A stretch of 64,000 nt of DNA from NCBI GenBank assembly GCA_043802485.1, contig JAZDKZ010000007.1, forward strand, positions 50,457-114,456, in the 5' to 3' direction. The position numbers and the translations under genes are program-made. The notes beneath the pieces were generated by a model, which had not been told where the DNA came from, searched no databases, and saw only the letters and a program-made list of their open reading frames with translations. Below are positions 223-54,615 of this stretch, one piece after another. Every line of letters starts with the position of its first letter. Within the stretch, counting starts at the first letter, position 1. Origin of the DNA: Candidatus Aenigmatarchaeota archaeon. Lineage in GTDB: Archaea > Aenigmatarchaeota > Aenigmatarchaeia > Aenigmatarchaeales > Aenigmatarchaeaceae.

Positions 223-1122
223 TTATGGCTTCTTTTGAAAATCCTTGACTATATATACCTTGTTTGACCTGCCGATTCGTTCAAGTTTGACAAGTCCTCT
301 TTCCTTCAAAGAACTCAGCACCTTTGACACTTTTGCCTTGGAATAGCCGCTGTCGCGCACAATAATTTTCTGATTGACACCGCTTCCGTGCTTCATTATG
401 GTGTTGAAAATTGTTTTCTCGTCTTTTTTCAGGACAGGAATAATAAATTTTATTCCTTTGCCTTTTAGATAGAACTGATAGAAGAGAACGAAGCCAGAAA
501 AAGTTATGACAACAATGACCAAAAGGTACTGCATGGGTAATCCTGCAATAACTTCGCCTGTACTATCGAAAGCAATGGAAACATCAAACCTTTCCCCGAC
601 ATCCAGATCATTCTTCAGCCAGTTTATTATCAGCCTTCTCCCGTCAGATCCCTTCAGAGCGTCAGAAGGACTGTAGGAATTCTCTATCGGCTCTCTCAGT
701 CCGGTTGCTTCTGGCAATTTTACCAAAACGGAAAGTGTGTTTACATCGTCGTCTAAAACGAAAGAGTCAGAAAAAAGAAGATAACCTTCCCTCTTCTTGA
801 CGTTCTCATCAGAACTGTACAAGACCTGTATGTCTGTCCTATTAGAAGCATCCATATCACATGTGACAACTGTTCCCAAGACCCTCTTAACAATCTTACA
901 ATCAGCCTTTGTCTCTATGCTTATGTTCGATGGGCTTCCAAGAGTGAAGGAAACATTCTGTTCAGGATTATTGACATATATTAAATTAATCTTGTAATTC
1001 ACAGTATTGTTCTCCAGAATATCTGCGTCAACACTGTACTGAAATATCTGGCAGAACCCTGGCATTGAGAATAGAATAAAACCTAGCAATATTGTTAGCA
1101 ATACCTTTTTCATGCGTATCAT
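223..1122 (-). CDS. Membrane-tethered winged-helix (MarR/PadR-like) DNA-binding protein: N-terminal signal peptide, extracytoplasmic domain, one TM helix, C-terminal wHTH
   Basis: N-terminal hydrophobic signal sequence (MIRMKKVLLTILLGFILFSMPGFCQ). TM segment LLVIVVITFSGFVLFYQFY near the C-terminus. C-terminal ~80 aa (TIFNTIMKHGSGVNQKIIVRDSGYSKAKVSKVLSSLKERGLVKLERIGRSNKVYIV) looks like a wHTH recognition helix plus wing. Confidence 0.5.
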   Translation of the reverse strand: MIRMKKVLLTILLGFILFSMPGFCQIFQYSVDADILENNTVNYKINLIYVNNPEQNVSFTLGSPSNISIETKADCKIVKRVLGTVVTCDMDASNRTDIQVLYSSDENVKKREGYLLFSDSFVLDDDVNTLSVLVKLPEATGLREPIENSYSPSDALKGSDGRRLIINWLKNDLDVGERFDVSIAFDSTGEVIAGLPMQYLLVIVVITFSGFVLFYQFYLKGKGIKFIIPVLKKDEKTIFNTIMKHGSGVNQKIIVRDSGYSKAKVSKVLSSLKERGLVKLERIGRSNKVYIVKDFQKKP

Positions 1123-1574
1123 TTTCCTCTAACCAGAACCATGCCGCCGGTTCCAGCTGCTGCGAACTGGTGCATGACATGGGAAACCGTGTTAAGGATC
1201 GACTGGGCCTCTCCTGCATCTGTCTCGAACTTTTTGGGCTCAAGAACCTCAATCGCAGACGGGCCATACTCTATGACTATCTGGACCAGGTTGTCAAAAT
1301 TGCTCGAAACAAGCTCTATCTCGCTGGTCATAGAATAACCTTTCTCAACGTTCTTTATCGGCTTTTCAACCTCTTTGGTCTCCCCGAACTCCTTCTTGCA
1401 CATCTTCACCCTACTGTCATTATCCAAGCGGTCAAGAAGACCTTCCAAAGACTTTTTGGTAGTTTCCTCGCTAACAGCCAAAACCTCAAACATCATCCAG
1501 GCTCTTATGTTCCCTTCCTTGACCTTTGCATCTGCCTCTTCCTTTGTAATCATAAGAACTAATTTCATTTTCAA
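1119..1574 (-). CDS. Hypothetical cytoplasmic protein (151 aa)
   Basis: Clean ORF with balanced, charged composition. The overlapping plus-strand ORF 1092..1562 is Cys/Leu-rich and looks spurious. No recognisable motif. Confidence 0.4.
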   Translation of the reverse strand: MKMKLVLMITKEEADAKVKEGNIRAWMMFEVLAVSEETTKKSLEGLLDRLDNDSRVKMCKKEFGETKEVEKPIKNVEKGYSMTSEIELVSSNFDNLVQIVIEYGPSAIEVLEPKKFETDAGEAQSILNTVSHVMHQFAAAGTGGMVLVRGK

Positions 1575-1584
1575 AGCTTTAAAT

Positions 1585-2619
1585 TTATTTCCATAGCCTG
1601 CTAGGAACCCATTTCAAACCCCTGACAGGCATTTTCTCTCCGCATTTGGGGCATTTCAGGTCCTTTTTGAGCAAGAGCCTTTTTACGCCCATGATGCTTC
1701 TTTCAATGGCCAGTTCTCCGCATTCCGGGCAGTATGTGTTCTCCAGCTTGTGGCCATGAACGTTACCGACATAGACATATTTCAGGCCCTGTTCCTTGGC
1801 TACCTTGTAGGCCTTTTCCAAAGTTTCCACGGGTGTCCTAGGCAATTCTGTCATCTTGTGTGTTGGAAAGAACTGCAGAATATGAAAAGGCATCTCCTCC
1901 CCCAGATTGTCAACAATCCACTTGCACAGCTTTTTCAAATCCTCCATATTGTCGCCTATTTCCGGAACTAACAGGTCGGTTATTTCAGTGTAGACCTTGC
2001 TCTTCTTGTAGGCCAGCAAGGCATCGAATATGGGCTCGACTTTTGGTACTTGGGATAACTTGCTGTAAAAGTCCGGATTTGCAGAGCCCTTGAAATCCAC
2101 GGTGGCGGCGTCAAGGTATCTTGATATCTTATTTATCGCTTTAGGAGAGGTGTAGCCGTTGGTCACAAACATGTTGTACAGGCCCTGCTCTGATGCTATT
2201 TTGGCTGTGTCATAAGCGAATTCATAGAATACAGTAGGCTCGACATAAGTGTAGGAGATGCCTTGCACTCCATTTTTCTTTGCCAGTTCCACGACTGCTT
2301 CTGGTGTATAGTCCTCGCCCGAGATATCAGCCTCCTGTGATATCTGCCAGTTGCAGCAAAAATCACAGCGAAAGTTACAGCCAACGCTGGATATGGACAA
2401 GGTCTTTGAACCGGGAGCAAACATGTACAAAGGCTTCTTTTCTATAGGATCCACAGCCACGGAATAGAGCTTTCCGTAGACAAGCGAATAGAGCTTTCCC
2501 TTTACGTTCTTTCTGACCCTGCAAAACCCGGTCTGGCCCTCGGGTATATTGCAATTTCTAGCGCACAAGCCACAGCTAACGGCATTTTCCAGCTTTTTGT
2601 AGAACAAGGCTTCCTTCAT
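1585..2619 (-). CDS. Radical SAM enzyme, AmmeMemoRadiSam-system / PFL-activase-like
   Basis: Radical SAM cluster motif C-NFRC-DFC (CxxxCxxC) preceded by a GxC motif. A C-terminal CPxCG...CPKCG zinc ribbon and the overall layout are typical of the AmmeMemoRadiSam radical SAM family. Confidence 0.65.
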   Translation of the reverse strand: MKEALFYKKLENAVSCGLCARNCNIPEGQTGFCRVRKNVKGKLYSLVYGKLYSVAVDPIEKKPLYMFAPGSKTLSISSVGCNFRCDFCCNWQISQEADISGEDYTPEAVVELAKKNGVQGISYTYVEPTVFYEFAYDTAKIASEQGLYNMFVTNGYTSPKAINKISRYLDAATVDFKGSANPDFYSKLSQVPKVEPIFDALLAYKKSKVYTEITDLLVPEIGDNMEDLKKLCKWIVDNLGEEMPFHILQFFPTHKMTELPRTPVETLEKAYKVAKEQGLKYVYVGNVHGHKLENTYCPECGELAIERSIMGVKRLLLKKDLKCPKCGEKMPVRGLKWVPSRLWK

Positions 2620-2658
2620 GATAGTTATTTAATTTTCAAAGCATTTTATACTTATTAT

Positions 2659-2744
2659 GCCCTAGTAGCTTAATCTGGTGAAGCGTTCGCCTCGTATAAG
2701 TTCGGGAAAGCGAAAGATTGCAGGTTCAAATCCTGCCTAGGGCT
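2659..2744 (+). tRNA. tRNA-Thr(CGU) with a ~12-nt canonical (37/38) intron at about 2697..2708
   Basis: Hand fold: acceptor GCCCTAG/CTAGGGC, discriminator U. D-stem GCTT/AAGC. Anticodon stem TTCGC/GCGAA with loop CTCGTA+A (anticodon CGT) interrupted by TAAGTTCGGGAA. Variable loop AGATT. T-arm GCAGG-TTCAAAT-CCTGC. No encoded CCA. Confidence 0.75.
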
Positions 2745-2799
2745 CTTTACCACAGCAAGTGGTAAAAAAGCACAAGCACTGTAAATACATACTATTTAC

Positions 2800-3635
2800 A
2801 TGCACTTAGAAACTAAATACCTAAAAGAGCTTTCCAAAAATGAAAGGGATAAGATTTTTGTTAAAATTGGTATTAAGAAAAATAAATTGAAATGCATAAG
2901 AAAATTGCCGCCAAAGCAAAAACTAATAGAATCTGCCAAAATAGCACTTCAAATAGACCCTACCACAAATGAGGATTTCATTGAGTGGATAGCCGGATAT
3001 GAATGGAGAGGAATTGTTCATAATTACTTTGATAATTTAGATGCTCTTCTTTCTTTTGCCAAAAAGGAGTTGCCTGTCATTAGAAAGAGTTTTGTATACA
3101 AAAACAATCCTAAAAAGATAGATATCCTTAGAATATTGCCATCAAAAATAGATATTCTGGATTTACATTGTGATATCAATGAGGATGAAATTCATATCTG
3201 GCAAAAAAATAATAGCCGCATCAGAAGCGTTAAATTAAGAAGAGAAATAGACAAAAAATCTTTCTTGTTGGCATGTCTCTCTACGCGGGAGAGGGAACAA
3301 AATCCAAAGGAAGGCATGATGTAGAAATAGTAAATTCCAACTTCTCTTTAATAAGAATATTTATTAAATTTCTTTCGGCACTGGGCATCAAAAAAGATGA
3401 AATAGGAGCTAGAGTGCATGTGCATGATAAAAAAGACGTAGAACATGCAACCCAGTTATGGATGGAAAATGTCGGATTGACTAGAAAACAATTTAAGAAA
3501 CCTTTGATGAAGAAAAGAGGCCGCAAAGTGAACAAGAGGTGTTTTACCTTGGATTTACGCGTCTATAATTCCATGTTACAAAATCTATTATTATACTGGC
3601 TATCTGATTTGGAAAGAATAATAGACTATATTTAA
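2800..3635 (+). pseudogene. Free-standing LAGLIDADG-family homing-endonuclease-like gene, split by a frameshift at an A6 run (two ORFs: 2800..3324 and 3273..3635)
   Basis: ORF2 begins ...KIFLVGMSLYAGEGTKSKGRHDVEIVNSNFSLIRIFIKFLSALGIKKDE when read through in its own frame. This closely parallels the intein block FCRLVGYYLAEGYTQGNEAITFTFNKKEKGYVFDVCFLMRKIFGLK at 7090-7200. ORF1 has a second degenerate motif (FIEWIAGYEWRGIV) about 100 aa upstream, the usual spacing in double-motif LAGLIDADG enzymes. The frames switch at the homopolymer acaaaaaatc (3253-3258). Confidence 0.35.
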
Positions 3636-4691: not shown

Positions 4692-4779
4692 GCGCCGATA
4701 GTCTAGCCTGGTAGGACATAAGCTTCCCAATTATCCAAGGAAACAGCTTAGGACCCGGGTTCAAATCCCGGTCGGCGCA
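4692..4779 (+). tRNA. tRNA-Gly(CCC) with a ~15-nt canonical intron (about 4730..4744)
   Basis: Acceptor GCGCCGA/TCGGCGC, discriminator A. Typical archaeal Gly D-arm GTAGTCTAGCCTGGTAGGAC. Anticodon stem TAAGC/GCTTA with loop TTCCCAA interrupted by ATTATCCAAGGAAAC. T-arm CCGGG-TTCAAAT-CCCGG. Confidence 0.7.
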
Positions 4780-18895: not shown

Positions 18896-19020
18896 ATTAT
18901 CACACGATTGTCTTAGAAAAAGTATCTATGAAAACAATTCTGCTATTTTTAATTTGGTACTCCGCTTTTAATTTTTATTAAAATAGATAATCTGCCCAAG
19001 TTTATAAAAATATCACTGAG

Positions 19021-19123
19021 TGGACCGGAGGGGACTCGAACCCCTAACCTCTTATGGCCCTGAAGGGTTTCCATTTTGGTTTAGATTGCCAAGGAAGCGA
19101 TCTTCCAGTTGATCTACCGGCCC
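19021..19123 (-). tRNA. tRNA-Ala(GGC) with two putative introns (about 13 nt at 19073..19085 after the anticodon loop; about 17 nt at 19052..19068 inside the 3' strand of the anticodon stem)
   Basis: Reverse complement: GGGCCGG-TA-GATC-AACTGGAA-GATC-G-CTTCC-TTGGCAA-[TCTAAACCAAAAT]-GGAA-[ACCCTTCAGGGCCATAA]-G-AGGTT-AGGGG-TTCGAGT-CCCCT-CCGGTCC-A. G3:U70 Ala identity pair is present. The spliced product is nearly identical to Methanocaldococcus-type tRNA-Ala (GUAGAUCA..GAUCGCUUCCUU.GCAAGGAAGAGG). Confidence 0.55.
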
Positions 19124-19162
19124 TGTTATTTAGAATAAAACTTTCCTAAATTTATAAATGAG

Positions 19163-19272
19163 TGGGCCGGGCAGGACTCGAACCTGCGATATTCACCGTG
19201 TAAGGGTGACGTATGCCATTGTTCCAAGGGCTCAACCCTAAGAAACAATCATAGCCGCTAGACCACCGGCCC
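19163..19272 (-). tRNA. tRNA-Val(UAC) with a 37-nt non-canonical intron between D-arm and anticodon stem (about 19210..19246)
   Basis: Reverse complement: GGGCCGG-TG-GTCT-AGCGGCTA-TGAT-T-[GTTTCTTAGGGTTGAGCCCTTGGAACAATGGCATACG]-TCACC-CTTACAC-GGTGA-ATATC-GCAGG-TTCGAGT-CCTGC-CCGGCCC-A. D-arm is almost identical to tRNA-Val(GAC) at 6109. Textbook anticodon stem-loop with anticodon TAC. Mature length 73. Confidence 0.5.
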
Positions 19273-19390
19273 TTGCTTATTTAATTAATTCAAATCAATT
19301 TAAAAGTTTACTGTAGGGCTTAAAGAAAAGAAATACTAGCCGGAAATTTAAATCCTTTTAACTTATACAAAAAGAAAGAAAAAAGTGGAT

Positions 19391-19530
19391 GTGGGCGAGG
19401 GGAGATTCGAATTCGGTAGCTCTCATCCACAAGAGCTTCTCCCGACCTCCAGTTTCTACAGAACACAGCCAACAAAAAGGACTGACGTCCTCTTATAAGA
19501 CTGGCGCTCTGCCAGGCTAAGCTACCCGCC
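19391..19530 (-). tRNA. tRNA-Ile(UAU) with two introns (39 nt canonical at about 19454..19492; 27 nt between T-stem and T-loop at about 19411..19437)
   Basis: Reverse complement: GGGCGGG-TA-GCTT-AGCCTGGCA-GAGC-G-CCAGT-CTTATA-[39 nt]-A-ACTGG-AGGTC-GGGAG-[AAGCTCTTGTGGATGAGAGCTACCGAA]-TTCGAAT-CTCCC-CTCGCCC-A. Anticodon loop CTTATAA fits the CTNNNAA pattern. Mature length 74. Confidence 0.5.
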
Positions 19531-19557
19531 CGTTAAGGATTTATTTTGTCTTCAGCA

Positions 19558-19565
19558 ATTTAAAA
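19558..19565 (-). promoter_or_regulatory. Putative TATA box (TTTTTAAA on the minus strand) about 30 nt upstream of tRNA-Ile, in the divergent region shared with the HTH regulator gene
   Basis: Minus-strand sequence ...catatttttaaattgctgaagacaaaataaatccttaac|GGGCGGG; the TATA-like element is centred near -30. Confidence 0.3.
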
Positions 19566-19567
19566 AT

Positions 19568-20461
19568 ATGTTTAATGTAAGGCAACAAGTCAAAATGTTC
19601 CTTGAAAAGAGCGACTATGTGATTTGTGAGTACAGGGGATGCTTTGACATAGCCGCGCAGAAAAACGTATTATTGTTGCTGAAAATTCTATTGAACGTGG
19701 ACTCGTTCCAGCAGGAGCAGGCCAGAAACCTGAAGATAATCTCGAACAATCTTGACGCGCATCCCATGCTGATAGGGGTTCAGACAACCAGGGAGAAGCT
19801 AAAGCATGGCATAGTGTACGAAAGGTATGACTTGCCGACATTATCATTAAAGACGTTCGAGGACTTGATATGCAGTTCAATCTATCCAAGAATATACAGG
19901 GACCGCGGAGGCCTGTATGTTGAGATAGATTCTGACGTGCTAAAGGACTCCAGAAAAAGGAAAGGTTTGACACAAAGAGAATTGGCAGAGGCTGTAGGCA
20001 TAAACAAAAAAGCGATATATGAGCACGAGAAGAAGCAGCTGAGGATGATGCTTGACATTGCCGAGAAGCTGGAAAGGATACTCGACAACAGGATTATAAC
20101 AAAGACCGAGGTCTTCAAGAAATATGAGGAACACGGCAAGCCTGAAGGCACCTTGGAGAAAATGGTTGGCAATAATCTGGAAAAACTGGGCTTCAAGACA
20201 GACTATGTCAAGCAGGCGCCGTTCGATGTCTTTGCCAGAGAAAGGGCGCTGGTCATATCCAACATCGAGATCAACAAAAGGAAGATGATAAAGAACGCCG
20301 CAGACCTCAGGGACTTTATCAAGGTGGTGAAAAAACCTGCTGTTATGATAACCGACAAGACTGAAGAAGAGGAGATACACGGAATCCCTGTTATCGACAA
20401 AGCAGAACTGGAAAGCATGGAAAAGAAAGACCTGATAAAGAAGGCGAAAAAAGCGATTTAA
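19568..20461 (+). CDS. Archaeal HTH (XRE-type) transcriptional regulator, about 300-aa conserved family
   Basis: Central HTH LTQRELAEAVGINKKAIYEHEKK (XRE/Cro-like). Domain layout matches the conserved euryarchaeal putative HTH-type regulator family. Confidence 0.55.
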   Translation: MFNVRQQVKMFLEKSDYVICEYRGCFDIAAQKNVLLLLKILLNVDSFQQEQARNLKIISNNLDAHPMLIGVQTTREKLKHGIVYERYDLPTLSLKTFEDLICSSIYPRIYRDRGGLYVEIDSDVLKDSRKRKGLTQRELAEAVGINKKAIYEHEKKQLRMMLDIAEKLERILDNRIITKTEVFKKYEEHGKPEGTLEKMVGNNLEKLGFKTDYVKQAPFDVFARERALVISNIEINKRKMIKNAADLRDFIKVVKKPAVMITDKTEEEEIHGIPVIDKAELESMEKKDLIKKAKKAI

Positions 20462-51492: not shown

Positions 51493-51600
51493 CGCTTCCG
51501 ACGGGATTTGAACCCGCGACCCCTTGATTTCTTCATCTTGAATCAGATCTTCTAAGTTATTTAGAAGTCAAGTGCTCTATCCAAACTGAGCTACGGAAGC
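51493..51600 (-). tRNA. tRNA-Arg(UCU) with a 33-nt canonical intron (about 51529..51561)
   Basis: Reverse complement: GCTTCCG-TA-GCTC-AGTTTGGATA-GAGC-A-CTTGA-CTTCTA-[33 nt]-A-TCAAG-GGGTC-GCGGG-TTCAAAT-CCCGT-CGGAAGC-G. The intron contains a second copy of TCAAG, so an alternative two-intron parse exists. Confidence 0.6.
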
Positions 51601-51657: not shown

Positions 51658-54252
51658 ATGGCAGACATAGAGGAAAAGTGGCAGAAAAGGTGGCAGGAAG
51701 CCAAGCTCTTCGAGGCAAAGGAAGGCAAGGAGAAGAAGTACTATGTTCTCGAGATGTTCCCATATCCTTCAGGAATTACAGGGCATATGGGGCATGTGAG
51801 GAACTATATGATAGGGGACAGCTTCACCAGGTTCATGAGGATGATGGGCTACAACGTCCTTTACCCGATGGGTTGGGACGCGTTCGGTCTTCCGACAGAG
51901 AACGCCGCCATAAAGAAAGGCGTGCATCCTGTAGAGAGCATGGCAGAAAACATAAAAAACTTTAAAGAGCAGCTGAACCAGCTGTCGATAAGCTACGACT
52001 GGTCAAGGGAATTGACTACATGCGATCCTGAATATTACAAGTGGAACCAGTGGCTATTCCTGAAGCTCTTGGAAAAGGGATTGACCTACAAGAGCTTTGC
52101 TTTGGGCAACTGGTGCCCGGCCTGCAAGACTGTCTTAGCTAATGAAGATGTCAAGGAAGGCAGATGCGACAGGTGCGAAACAGAGGTCACGCAGAAAGAG
52201 ATCAACCAGTGGTTCTTCAAGATTACGGATTATGCTGACAGGCTTTTGGATGACCTAGACAAGATTGACTGGTCAGAAAGGTTGAAGGCTATACAGAGAA
52301 ACTGGATAGGCAAGAGCCATGGCATCAATTATATTTTCAAAATTAAAGACAGCGAAAAGGAGATAAAGACCTTTACCACCAGACCCGACACTTTTTTCGG
52401 CATAACCTTCATGGTAATCGCCCCTGAACATCCGATGGTCAACGAATTGATGGAAGAGGCTGAAAACAGAAAGGAAATCAAAAAGTTCGTGAAAGAGGCA
52501 AAGAAGCTTTCAGAATTGGAAAGAACCATACTCACAAAGGAGAAGAAGGGTATTTTCACAGGCAAGTATGTCATCAATCCTGTGACAAAAAAAGAGATAC
52601 CCATATGGCTTGCAAACTATGTTGTAGGAACCTACGGGACAGGGGTTGTGATAGGCGTTCCCACCCAGGACCAGAGAGACTTTGAGTTCGCCAAAAAATA
52701 TGGCATACCCTTGAAGCTTGTGATAAATCCTCCGGGCAAGGAGCTGAAGGAAAAAGAAATGCAGGAAGCTTACACAGAAGAGGGTGTCATGATAAACTCA
52801 GACAAGTTCGACGGCATGAAAAGTTCTGAAGCCATGAAAGCGATAGCCGACTTTCTGGTTGAGAAGGGCCATGCAGAAAGGACTATCAACTATAAGATAA
52901 GGGACTGGTGCATATCAAGGCAGAGATATTGGGGAACGCCGATACCGGTTGTATATTGTGATAAATGCGGAATCGTTCCTGTCCCTGAAAAGGACCTGCC
53001 TGTGGAGCTTCCCCTGGATGTGGAGTTCGGCAAGGAGGGCGCCCCACCGCTGGCAACGAATGAAGGTTTTGTGAACACCAAGTGCCCCAAGTGCGGTGGA
53101 CCTGGCAAAAGGGAGACCGACACAATGACCACTTTCGTTGATTCTTCTTGGTACTATCTGCGCTATACTTCTCCTAAATATGACAAGGCTATGTTTGACA
53201 AGGAAAAAGTTAACTACTGGATGCCTGTTGACCAGTACATCGGAGGGTCCGAGCATGCTGTAGGCCATCTGATGTATTCTAGGTTCATAACAAAGTTCCT
53301 GAAGGACATTGGCTATCTTAACTTTGACGAGCCTTTCATGAAGCTGATGAACCAGGGAATGGTCAACAAGAACGGAGTGAAGATGAGCAAGTCAAAGGGC
53401 AACGTTGTCGACCCAAGGGACGTTATCAAGGAGCACGGCGTTGACACTCTGAGAACGTACATGCTTTTCATGGCCCATCCGACAAAGGAAGTGGAATGGT
53501 CTGACAAGGAAATTGGAGGGGTCGGCAAGTTCCTGGAAAGGGTGATAAGGATGAGAGCGTCTATGAAAAAGGAAAAGAACAAATACATAGAAAGCGTGAC
53601 CCAGAGAAAAATAGAGTCTGTGACAAATTCGATAAAGAAGCTTGAGCCTAATGTCGCCATCATAGAACTGATGGACTTTGCCAACAAGCTTTCAAAGCAT
53701 CCTTCTTTGGAGTGTTATAAGATATTTTTGAAGATGCTCACGCCTTTTGCGCCTCATACCACAGAGGAGATATGGGAAAAACTCGAAGAAAAGGAAATGA
53801 TATCTGTGCAAAAATGGCCAGAGCCTGACGAGTCCAAGATAAATCTGAAAGAGGAAGCAGGCGAGGAACTTATAAGCCAGATTATAAAAGACGTGGGGGA
53901 GATTCAGAAACTATCCAAAATAGCTTCCCCGAAGAAAATAACTATATTTGTCTCGCCTTCCTGGAAAAGCGATGTCTATGACAATGTGCTTCAGGAAAAG
54001 GACCTGAAAGAATTCATCAAGGATTTCAAGGGCAAGGAGAAGGAAGTTGCTGACTATTACAAAAAGCTGGTAAAGAAAAGACCTACAGAAGAAAAGTTCC
54101 TGAAAGGACATGAGATAAAGCATCTGGAAAATAACAGGGATATTCTGGAAAAAGAATTCGGCTGCGAGATAGAGATTGTTCCAGCAGAGAAAGAAAAGCA
54201 TCCCAAGGCGAAGATAGCAGAACCTGAGAAACCCGGTTTATTGGTTGACTAA
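51658..54252 (+). CDS. leuS: Leucyl-tRNA synthetase (archaeal type)
   Basis: HMGH (HIGH variant) in FPYPSGITGHMGHVRNYMIGD, CP1 editing domain, KMSKS (VKMSKSKGN); 864 aa. Confidence 0.9.
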   Translation: MADIEEKWQKRWQEAKLFEAKEGKEKKYYVLEMFPYPSGITGHMGHVRNYMIGDSFTRFMRMMGYNVLYPMGWDAFGLPTENAAIKKGVHPVESMAENIKNFKEQLNQLSISYDWSRELTTCDPEYYKWNQWLFLKLLEKGLTYKSFALGNWCPACKTVLANEDVKEGRCDRCETEVTQKEINQWFFKITDYADRLLDDLDKIDWSERLKAIQRNWIGKSHGINYIFKIKDSEKEIKTFTTRPDTFFGITFMVIAPEHPMVNELMEEAENRKEIKKFVKEAKKLSELERTILTKEKKGIFTGKYVINPVTKKEIPIWLANYVVGTYGTGVVIGVPTQDQRDFEFAKKYGIPLKLVINPPGKELKEKEMQEAYTEEGVMINSDKFDGMKSSEAMKAIADFLVEKGHAERTINYKIRDWCISRQRYWGTPIPVVYCDKCGIVPVPEKDLPVELPLDVEFGKEGAPPLATNEGFVNTKCPKCGGPGKRETDTMTTFVDSSWYYLRYTSPKYDKAMFDKEKVNYWMPVDQYIGGSEHAVGHLMYSRFITKFLKDIGYLNFDEPFMKLMNQGMVNKNGVKMSKSKGNVVDPRDVIKEHGVDTLRTYMLFMAHPTKEVEWSDKEIGGVGKFLERVIRMRASMKKEKNKYIESVTQRKIESVTNSIKKLEPNVAIIELMDFANKLSKHPSLECYKIFLKMLTPFAPHTTEEIWEKLEEKEMISVQKWPEPDESKINLKEEAGEELISQIIKDVGEIQKLSKIASPKKITIFVSPSWKSDVYDNVLQEKDLKEFIKDFKGKEKEVADYYKKLVKKRPTEEKFLKGHEIKHLENNRDILEKEFGCEIEIVPAEKEKHPKAKIAEPEKPGLLVD

Positions 54253-54615
54253 TCTTCTATAGTCATTGAAAACTTTTTCTACAGTTCTTTTCGTGACATA
54301 GGGTCTGTGGTTCCTAAAGCCGCCGCCGAAGCATTTGGGTATGTGCATCAACTCATGTATTATTGTCTTGGTCTTCTCGTCATTGTCCAGCTTGTCAAAG
54401 TTCTCGGAGATGAACTCGATGGCATAGAAAGCCTTGGTCTGCATGGCCTTTTGCATTATCTTTGAAAGGCCCTGTATCCTGGCAAGTATCCTCTTGCTCT
54501 TCGATCCCCTGCTCCTTATGCACACGACCCTGTCGGCCCTGACGTGGCACATTTCCAATCTTTCGACAACGTCGTCCATTATTTCCTGTATGTCATCGGC
54601 TATCTCGTACTTCAT
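54238..54615 (-). CDS. YgjP/DUF45-like metal-dependent hydrolase (HExxH...NH motif)
   Basis: IIHELMHIPKCFGGGFRNH matches the WLM/YgjP-type HELxHxxxxxH zinc site. Confidence 0.45.
   Translation of the reverse strand: MKYEIADDIQEIMDDVVERLEMCHVRADRVVCIRSRGSKSKRILARIQGLSKIMQKAMQTKAFYAIEFISENFDKLDNDEKTKTIIHELMHIPKCFGGGFRNHRPYVTKRTVEKVFNDYRRLVNQ

Follow-up and report, generated by a model that had tools for sequence, protein, structure and literature searches.

tRNA gene cluster of the window

The 64,000-nucleotide (nt) stretch of contig JAZDKZ010000007.1 analyzed in this work, referred to below as the window, carries on its minus strand, from position 19531 to position 19021, a cluster of three transfer RNA (tRNA) genes, i.e., tRNA-Ile(UAU), tRNA-Val(UAC), and tRNA-Ala(GGC). 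These genes are interrupted by five introns in total, and three of the five are placed outside the usual anticodon-loop site. In-silico removal of the five insertions gave canonical cloverleaves of 73-74 nt with a 7-nt anticodon loop and the anticodons UAU, UAC, and GGC, respectively. The mature tRNA-Ile(UAU) is 74 nt long, including the discriminator A, and sequence inspection showed that CCA is not encoded in any of the three genes. The coordinates of all features are collected in Table 1.

Each gene of the cluster is preceded, about 25-35 nt upstream, by a TATA-like box, and similar boxes accompany the other tRNA genes of the window at about -31. The divergent neighbour of the cluster is a gene of a helix-turn-helix (HTH) protein (19568-20461), whose product is 100% identical to a protein from a Candidatus Aenigmatarchaeota metagenome-assembled genome (MAG); judging from their sequences, the flanking genes assign the window to Candidatus Aenigmatarchaeota. 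An arginine decarboxylase gene is also a neighbour of the cluster. In our opinion, these are very probably three functional archaeal tRNA genes with their own TATA-box promoters, whose primary transcripts contain five introns of the bulge-helix-bulge (BHB) type.

Matches to the Rfam tRNA model (RF00005) exceed the gathering score at all three loci (19021-19123, 19392-19531, and 19163-19233), the last match covering only the 3′ part of the tRNA-Val gene, and a search of the region 18900-19700 at a permissive E-value added nothing except sub-threshold chance matches (YrlA and HPnc0260). ARAGORN with default settings found none of the three cluster genes in the window, while with its intron option it proposed a tRNA-Ala with a 13-nt intron and a long extra arm (score of 108.3) and a 'Leu(UAG)' with a 17-nt intron and an extra arm (107.8). 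It is extremely improbable that these parses are the right ones, since the same program gave higher scores (120-123) to the BHB-based parses, i.e., Ile(tat) 120.7, Val(tac) 119.9, and Ala(ggc) 122.8 for the spliced sequences, versus 107-108 for its own solutions. Furthermore, Ala and Val tRNAs are not of the extra-arm type, the segments taken for extra arms are bounded by BHBs, and the intronless genes orthologous to 'Leu' encode ordinary tRNA-Val(UAC) with identical exons. Both parses were therefore rejected as forced, the first one having a false long variable arm and the second one naming the tRNA-Val gene 'Leu(tag)'.

In the whole window there are eight tRNA genes, six of which contain introns (eight introns altogether). 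One of the genes outside the cluster (2659-2745, plus strand) was recognized as tRNA-Thr(CGU) once its 37/38 intron of 12 nt had been removed with the BHB as a guide; ARAGORN called it Arg(tcg) without the intron option and Ser(cga) with it.

Table 1. Positions of the tRNA genes, introns, promoter elements, and the splicing endonuclease gene in the window, with the BHB helices found at the intron junctions and the number of intron placements in the same gene that are at least as good
Feature	Length	Position	Strand	Assignment	BHB helices	Placements at least as good
tRNA-Ile(UAU) gene, two introns	140 nt	19392-19531	minus	Rfam tRNA, 33.7 bits		
Ile intron 1, anticodon loop	39 nt	19454-19492	minus	relaxed BHB	H4 with two G.U, h′7, no h	9 of 7000 (top 0.13%)
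Ile intron 2, between T-stem 53 and T-loop 54	27 nt	19412-19438	minus	HBh′-type (relaxed)	H 3/4, h′9 (6-bp core)	6 of 7000
tRNA-Val(UAC) gene, one intron	110 nt	19163-19272	minus	Rfam tRNA, 30.1 bits		
Val intron, D-stem 3′ strand, between G23 and A24	37 nt	19213-19249	minus	strict hBHBh′	h3-H4-h′7	1 of 3916
tRNA-Ala(GGC) gene, two introns, G3:U70	103 nt	19021-19123	minus	Rfam tRNA, 44.3 bits		
Ala intron 1, canonical 37/38	13 nt	19074-19086	minus	strict BHB core	h4-H4-h′1	3 of 3321
Ala middle exon UGGAA, positions 38-42	5 nt	19069-19073	minus	follows from the two junctions		
Ala intron 2, anticodon-stem 3′ strand (42/43)	17 nt	19052-19068	minus	HBh′ (relaxed)	H4-h′4	10 of 3321
TATA-like box TTTTTAAATT, ~26-35 nt upstream of tRNA-Ile		19557-19566	minus	sequence inspection		
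TATA-like box TTTTAAATT, upstream of tRNA-Val		19297-19305	minus			
TATA-like box TTTATAAATTT, upstream of tRNA-Ala		19148-19158	minus			
tRNA-splicing endonuclease EndA, N- and C-terminal domains	182 aa	38779-39327	plus	Pfam PF02778, PF01974		
tRNA-Thr(CGU) gene, ordinary 37/38 intron		at 2659				
tRNA-Gly(CCC) gene, ordinary 37/38 intron		at 4692				
tRNA-Arg(UCU) gene, ordinary 37/38 intron		at 51600				

BHB motifs at the exon-intron junctions

The junctions were analyzed with one fixed BHB geometry, in which a 4-bp helix (H) is flanked by two bulges of 3 nt, and the cut in each bulge is placed behind its second nucleotide. The outer helix was designated h and the inner one h′. With this geometry every possible intron placement in each gene was scanned, and the junctions were afterwards ranked, which showed that all five belong to the best 0.03-0.3% of the possible placements in their own genes (Table 1). 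The three ordinary 37/38 introns of the window serve as a calibration of the model: in this register, all of them show strict hBHBh′ motifs and leave loops of exactly 7 nt. Strict BHBs bound the Val intron and Ala intron 1, relaxed HBh′ motifs bound Ala intron 2 and Ile intron 2, and only a weak BHB is present at Ile intron 1. No group I or group II ribozyme core was recognized, the introns being 13-39 nt long and the region giving no Rfam match besides tRNA, and the exons are colinear within each of the three genes, without any split or permuted order.

For the comparative analyses, about 100 syntenic loci (designated by the letter L and a number) were gathered by scanning collections of genomes and metagenomes with an HTH-protein alignment, and eight more were added through closest-homologue look-ups. 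Orthologues of the cluster genes were recovered by a purpose-made search based on the acceptor stem and the T-loop, in 51 loci for Ile (38 distinct sequences in the anticodon-region extraction), 35 loci for Val, and 32 loci for Ala. An intron solver was applied to the Ala and Val genes, and the lines that it returned for the 'UGAC' variant of the Ile genes (no solution or spurious multi-intron solutions) were discarded, because in this common intron variant h′ is interrupted. The comparison of introns covers the sampled relatives; the closest one, P0002 (87% identity), lies outside it, and L001 (80% identity) has no upstream DNA.

The Val intron splits the 3′ strand of the D-stem, which in the mature tRNA reads U22-G23|A24-C25 and is followed by G26. 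Its motif consists of h of 3 bp, H = GCUA/UGGC, the bulges UG|A and AU|A, and h′ of 7 bp. The intronless tRNA-Val(UAC) of L002 and L003, which reads ...GGCUAUGACGUCACC..., differs from the spliced product only in the pair 6:67, where the change is compensatory. When the window introns were compared with all loci by blastn-short, no homologue of the Val intron was found in the related loci.

In the tRNA-Ala(GGC) gene two introns are separated by a 5-nt micro-exon (UGGAA). At the first one, h is formed by 4-5 bp of the anticodon stem, H = UUGG/CCAA, the bulges are CA|A and AA|U, and h′ is minimal. Many orthologues contain homologues of this intron of 11-16 nt, and intronless orthologues exist too. 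The motif of the second intron (H = AUGG/CCAU, bulges AA|A and AA|G, h′ = CCC(U)/(A)GGG) is contained in the minimum-free-energy (MFE) fold of pre-tRNA-Ala. Both the two-intron form and the micro-exon recur in L012, L044, L084, and L035, with h′ at 42/43 covarying (CC/GG, CU/AG, or CUA/UAG, against CCC/GGG in the window), and the second intron is absent from L107, L112, L002, L003, and L008. Moreover, the central sequence predicted after removal of both introns is found exactly in Ala genes without introns (L107, L003, L008, L055, and others). Since G39 and G40 of the micro-exon take part in both BHBs, the two motifs cannot coexist, so that the introns would be removed one after the other; on this model, a valid motif is left for the second step whichever intron goes first. 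As a separate observation, in the Ala-GGC genes of seven loci (L028, L031, L037, L042, L048, L049, and L053) the loop reads U-C-G-G-C-A, i.e., it has C33 and not the near-universal U33.

The T-arm intron of tRNA-Ile(UAU) is bounded by a motif with H = CGGG/ACCG (three of four pairs) and both 3-nt bulges in register, and the counting script gave nine pairs in h′, including the 6-bp core AGCUCU/AGAGCU, which places this junction in the top 0.09% of the placements. The intron is absent in L107, L110, and L112, where the T-arm matches the predicted product except for one base of the T-loop. Introns at 53/54 are also present in the Ile genes of L055, L056, L058, L059, L084, L060, and L018, with a perfect H (CGAG/CUCG), and in the Ala genes of L036 and L092. 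Blastn-short against all loci gave no sequence homologue of the window's T-arm intron. At 53/54, H follows the T-stem: the relatives have CGAG/CUCG and the Ala genes UUCG/CGAA, compared with CGGG/ACCG in the window, and the change of A50-U to G50-C is compensatory. Thus, in the homologous introns of the related loci the BHB helices are kept by compensatory changes at both 53/54 and 42/43.

The original prediction, made from the sequence alone, named the same three isoacceptors and the same number and lengths of introns, which the spliced cloverleaves and their BHBs bear out, and the G3:U70 pair that it expected is present in the spliced tRNA-Ala. Its intron positions hold for four of the five introns; the Val intron was put in the gap between the D-arm and the anticodon stem, and both the hBHBh′ motif and the intronless L002/L003 sequence move its junction by 2-3 nt, to 23/24. 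Its claim that these genes cannot be folded with plain anticodon-loop (37/38) introns holds only in part, since Ala intron 1 is a plain intron with a strict 37/38 BHB, and the site of the Ile loop intron is canonical in sequence terms. As for the checks that were proposed, a BHB or relaxed BHB is present at all five junctions, and, concerning tRNA finders, Rfam matches all three genes, but ARAGORN misses them by default and with the intron option returns other parses of lower score.

Intron turnover in the related loci

Across the related loci, the orthologous genes contain from zero to three introns each, at a dozen or more positions, which include 9/10, the D-loop, 23/24, 28/29, 29/30, 33-35, 37-39, 42/43, 45/46, 53/54, and the variable region. 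The nearest sampled relatives (L107, L110, L112, and L113; 80-81% identity of the neighbour protein) have one or two cluster introns, versus five in the window, and four of the five window introns are missing from some orthologues whose flanking exons match the predicted product. As far as can be judged from these sequences, the distribution of introns is patchy and does not follow the tree. The more distant L060 shares the T-arm intron with the window, and L012 shares the Ala 42/43 intron. Further introns were seen in the Ile(UAU) genes of L012 and L054 (9/10), L057, L092, and L060 (D-loop), L009 (variable region), and L006 (29/30), and the Ile gene of L060 has three introns in total.

Near-identical introns (ACCUUU..GG CCAUAU) were found at position 45/46 of the Val genes of L050, L059, and L084 and at position 42/43 of the Ala genes of the window (19052-19068), L084, L044, and L035. 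Since nearly the same introns occupy two sites, both of them preceded by the exon sequence GUGGAA, the sequences suggest that introns were copied between genes.

The anticodon-loop intron of tRNA-Ile(UAU)

Archaeal tRNA-Ile(UAU) is rare. In every orthologue recovered here, its gene contains the anticodon-loop intron, which counts as conserved in nearly all Aenigmatarchaeota orthologues and has a conserved sequence in the main clade. In BHB terms the register of this intron is 38/39, and the mature sequence is the same as for 37/38. H (UUAU/GUAG) includes two G.U pairs and h′ has 7 bp. In an alignment of 36 distinct sequences of the related loci (alignment A2, corresponding to the minus-strand segment 19454-19519 of the window), H is paired in 36/36 sequences but invariant, and h′ is 84.7% paired.

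The same precursor can adopt a second fold (fold B), which is mutually exclusive with the cloverleaf and BHB (fold A). It consists of an 8-bp hairpin starting from A37 and a 12-bp helix, in which the 3′ half of the intron pairs with exon nucleotides 21-32, i.e., with the 3′ strand of the D-stem and the 5′ strand of the anticodon stem. Over the 36 sequences, standard pairs are formed in 93.4% of the cells for fold A and in 97.5% for fold B, and changes on both sides were found for five and seven pairs, respectively. A triple covariation was observed, in which positions 28 and 29 covary with both their true 3′ strand and the intron strand. The values of fold B were reached in 0/500 shuffles, although the shuffles leave the phylogenetic signal in place. 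RNAalifold alone returned fold B, which is also the MFE structure of the window precursor (-58.6 kcal/mol), predicted to lie 6-7 kcal/mol below the folds constrained to the cloverleaf (-52.2 and -51.2 kcal/mol). In the distant relative L096, which has a different intron sequence, the intron likewise pairs with exon nucleotides 21-33.

These data raise the question of whether the intron serves as a conserved cis-acting element, with fold B holding the precursor in a non-cloverleaf form and splicing requiring a switch to the cloverleaf and BHB, which might follow a step that depends on the intron, e.g., a modification of U34/U36. Such a role is possible, but we consider it less likely than not to be real. 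The pairing statistics and covariation of fold B, its recovery by RNAalifold, its rank as the MFE structure, and the similar pairing in L096 speak for it. So do the tRNA-Ile(UAU) genes of Korarchaeum (PMC6000648) and ARMAN-2 (PMC3239211), which both bear an intron, and the yeast tRNA-Ile(UAU), in which the intron is required for pseudouridine at 34 and 36 (PMC4090602). On the other hand, the basis of this proposal is purely computational, the shuffle control keeps the phylogenetic signal, part of the complementarity falls on the near-invariant sequence of the D-stem, the short intron of the L011 type has no clear fold B, and neither box C/D or H/ACA features nor an Rfam match were seen in the intron. 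By analogy, a functional role of the archaeal Ile(UAU) intron is plausible.

Two more specific ideas were tried and rejected. A box C/D or H/ACA guide within the intron is contradicted by alignment A2, which lacks conserved boxes and in which the UGAC segment shows the covariation of a hairpin stem, and Rfam gave no snoRNA match. A pseudoknot that would combine fold B with the H helix was dismissed by inference from its geometry.

EndA and the proposed splicing pathway

The presumed cutter of the cluster introns is a tRNA-splicing endonuclease (EndA) encoded in the window 19 kb away. Its best relative of known structure is the alpha4 EndA of M. jannaschii (1a79; 6.5e-34, full length), followed by the N. 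equitans alpha subunit and the ARMAN-2 epsilon2 enzyme; the full-length alignment with the M. jannaschii alpha4 protein therefore defines it as a single alpha-type unit. Between the catalytic Tyr and His there is a 7-residue insertion (PVKKGPK), which in the alignment falls on the insertions present in N. equitans alpha and ARMAN-2 EndA and has no counterpart in M. jannaschii. In 119 of the 120 best EndA homologues this insertion is conserved as P[VIL]KKGPK, the Tyr and His are kept, and the motif AHNIR[SA] stands in place of AHSVRK; those homologues whose source is named are labelled Aenigmatarchaeota or Aenigmarchaeota. A Nanoarchaea/ARMAN-2 loop ('L3') was described by Kaneta et al. (2018) in alpha4-type EndAs of several DPANN lineages and tied to more disrupted tRNA genes, Aenigmarchaeota not being among the genomes analyzed (PMC5829648). 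The 7-residue insertion may correspond to this loop.

According to the mechanism that we propose, EndA would recognize each boundary by its local RNA shape, i.e., two 3-nt bulges flanking a 4-bp helix, whatever its position in the tRNA, and would cut after the second nucleotide of each bulge. The exons would then be joined by an RtcB-type ligase, none of which was found among the 60 open reading frames (ORFs) of the window that were scanned, and CCA would be added afterwards. The relaxed motifs would need an endonuclease with broadened specificity, and the loop insertion of EndA fits such a property. The sequences show the genes with their junctions and BHB geometry, the covariation, the orthologues without introns, and the presence of EndA, whereas cleavage and ligation as such, the succession of the splicing steps, and the specificity of EndA are here inferred.

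Several points weigh against the proposal that the cluster consists of functional genes with BHB introns cut by this enzyme. The Lys of the catalytic triad (M. jannaschii K156) is replaced by Ser in the window EndA, and Ser or Ala occupies this position in 119 of the 120 best EndA homologues (63-100% identity). This may reflect either a compensated chemistry or another catalytic subunit encoded elsewhere in the genome; among the 60 window ORFs scanned, neither an EndA beta subunit nor RtcB was found. As regards the motifs, H of the Ile T-arm intron contains a G.A mismatch, and a strict BHB is missing at the Ile anticodon-loop intron, where H includes two G.U pairs, h is absent, and h′ is mismatched at the second pair in 25/36 relatives. 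Furthermore, in fold B, which is predicted and supported by covariation, both the D-arm and the anticodon stem are opened and the 5′ splice site is hidden in a helix, and splicing itself is deduced from the sequences.

The opposite interpretation is that the insertions are not spliced and that the three genes are pseudogenes or decaying copies, with functional copies elsewhere in the genome. It could draw on the failure of standard ARAGORN to find the genes and their modest Rfam scores (30-44 bits), and on the closest relatives, which have far fewer insertions at this locus. Nevertheless, we regard it as very improbable. The exons are perfectly conserved and give canonical cloverleaves once the insertions are removed, and all insertions are bounded by BHBs in the correct register, which random insertions would reach in about 1 in 300-3000 cases each. 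In addition, the same insertion sites recur, with compensatory changes, in independent lineages, and the locus keeps its synteny and promoters. Functional, intron-bearing genes remain the preferred explanation of the cluster.

A bolder proposal links the two unusual components of the system, namely that the phylum-wide Ile(UAU) intron is a functional cis-element serving an anticodon step and that EndA works without the canonical Lys by means of lysines of its inserted loop. We hold this combination to be improbable. In such a scheme, the intron pairing would lock the precursor in a rod-like fold with U33-U36 in an internal loop, and the intron would be removed only after a conformational switch.

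Other features of the window

The gene of leucyl-tRNA synthetase (LeuRS; 51658-54252, plus strand) matches PF13603, the LeuRS editing domain (E = 9e-74). The PF13603 model is typical of bacterial-type LeuRS, and the window enzyme may have been laterally acquired. A small ORF (54238-54615, minus strand) encodes a 'putative phage metallopeptidase' domain (PF18894; E = 5e-24).

Relation to known systems and significance

The introns of the cluster belong to a known class, i.e., the archaeal protein-spliced BHB introns, multiple and non-canonical, of TACK and some DPANN lineages. Multiple, non-canonical BHB introns in the tRNA genes of Crenarchaeota (Thermoproteales) were reportedly described by Sugahara et al. 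in 2008, and transposition of tRNA introns is said to have been reported by Fujishima et al. in 2010. Like those of the Thermoproteales, the tRNA genes of the cluster and of its related loci have short introns of 11-40 nt, as many as three in one gene, at numerous sites of the cloverleaf, with strict or relaxed BHBs at their bounds, a patchy occurrence among close relatives, and near-identical introns at different sites or in different genes. The cluster differs in that the lineage of the window is DPANN and not TACK, and in its EndA, in which one alpha4-like unit bears an insertion of the Nanoarchaeum/ARMAN type, in contrast to the (alpha-beta)2 enzyme with a crenarchaeal loop. The multiple and non-canonical tRNA introns of Crenarchaeota are covered in reviews (PMC4090602, PMC4033280).

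Within DPANN, ARMAN/Micrarchaeota, Nanoarchaeum, Pacearchaeota, and Woesearchaeota (PMC3239211, PMC5829648) resemble the window in the anticodon-loop intron of Ile(UAU), in non-canonical intron sites, and in an EndA whose loop insertion is specific to the lineage and is supposed to relax the substrate specificity. Unlike in the window, their EndA keeps the catalytic lysine; split or permuted genes are a feature not seen here, and Aenigmatarchaeota are outside those studies. We found no description of multiple or non-canonical tRNA introns in Aenigmatarchaeota in the searchable literature. The interpretation of the insertions as multiple or non-canonical archaeal tRNA introns in a DPANN-type lineage is upheld by the BHBs at the junctions, the intronless orthologues identical with the spliced products, and the Aenigmatarchaeota origin of the flanking genes; the list of lineages with such introns in the original prediction (Thermoproteales, Korarchaeota, and Nanoarchaeota/DPANN) is better given as TACK and several DPANN lineages, as several DPANN groups have more disrupted tRNA genes (Kaneta et al. 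2018, PMC5829648).

For the Ile(UAU) anticodon-loop intron, two further systems are of interest. In yeast tRNA-Ile(UAU), modified by Pus1 (pseudouridine 34/36; PMC4090602), the isoacceptor likewise always has an intron, which pairs with the anticodon region. The archaeal intron is predicted to pair also with the 3′ strand of the D-stem, which has not been described for yeast, and a role in modification would rest here on analogy. The box C/D intron of the euryarchaeal pre-tRNA-Trp is similar in being conserved and in having a long stretch complementary to its own exon, but the Ile intron has no box C/D or C′/D′, is too short with its 39 nt, and gives no Rfam match.

Default tRNA finders miss or misname genes of this kind, so that without BHB-aware searches Aenigmatarchaeota MAGs seem to lack essential isoacceptors. 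The lineage, in which introns at this locus turn over rapidly, provides a natural system outside the Thermoproteales for the gain, loss, and copying of BHB introns. It also offers testable leads on archaeal tRNA splicing and on AUA decoding, i.e., a lysine-less EndA family and the covarying alternative fold of the Ile(UAU) intron. If the proposed role of this intron is true, a modification of U34/U36 preventing misreading of AUG would be the archaeal counterpart of the eukaryotic intron-dependent pseudouridylation of tRNA-Ile(UAU).

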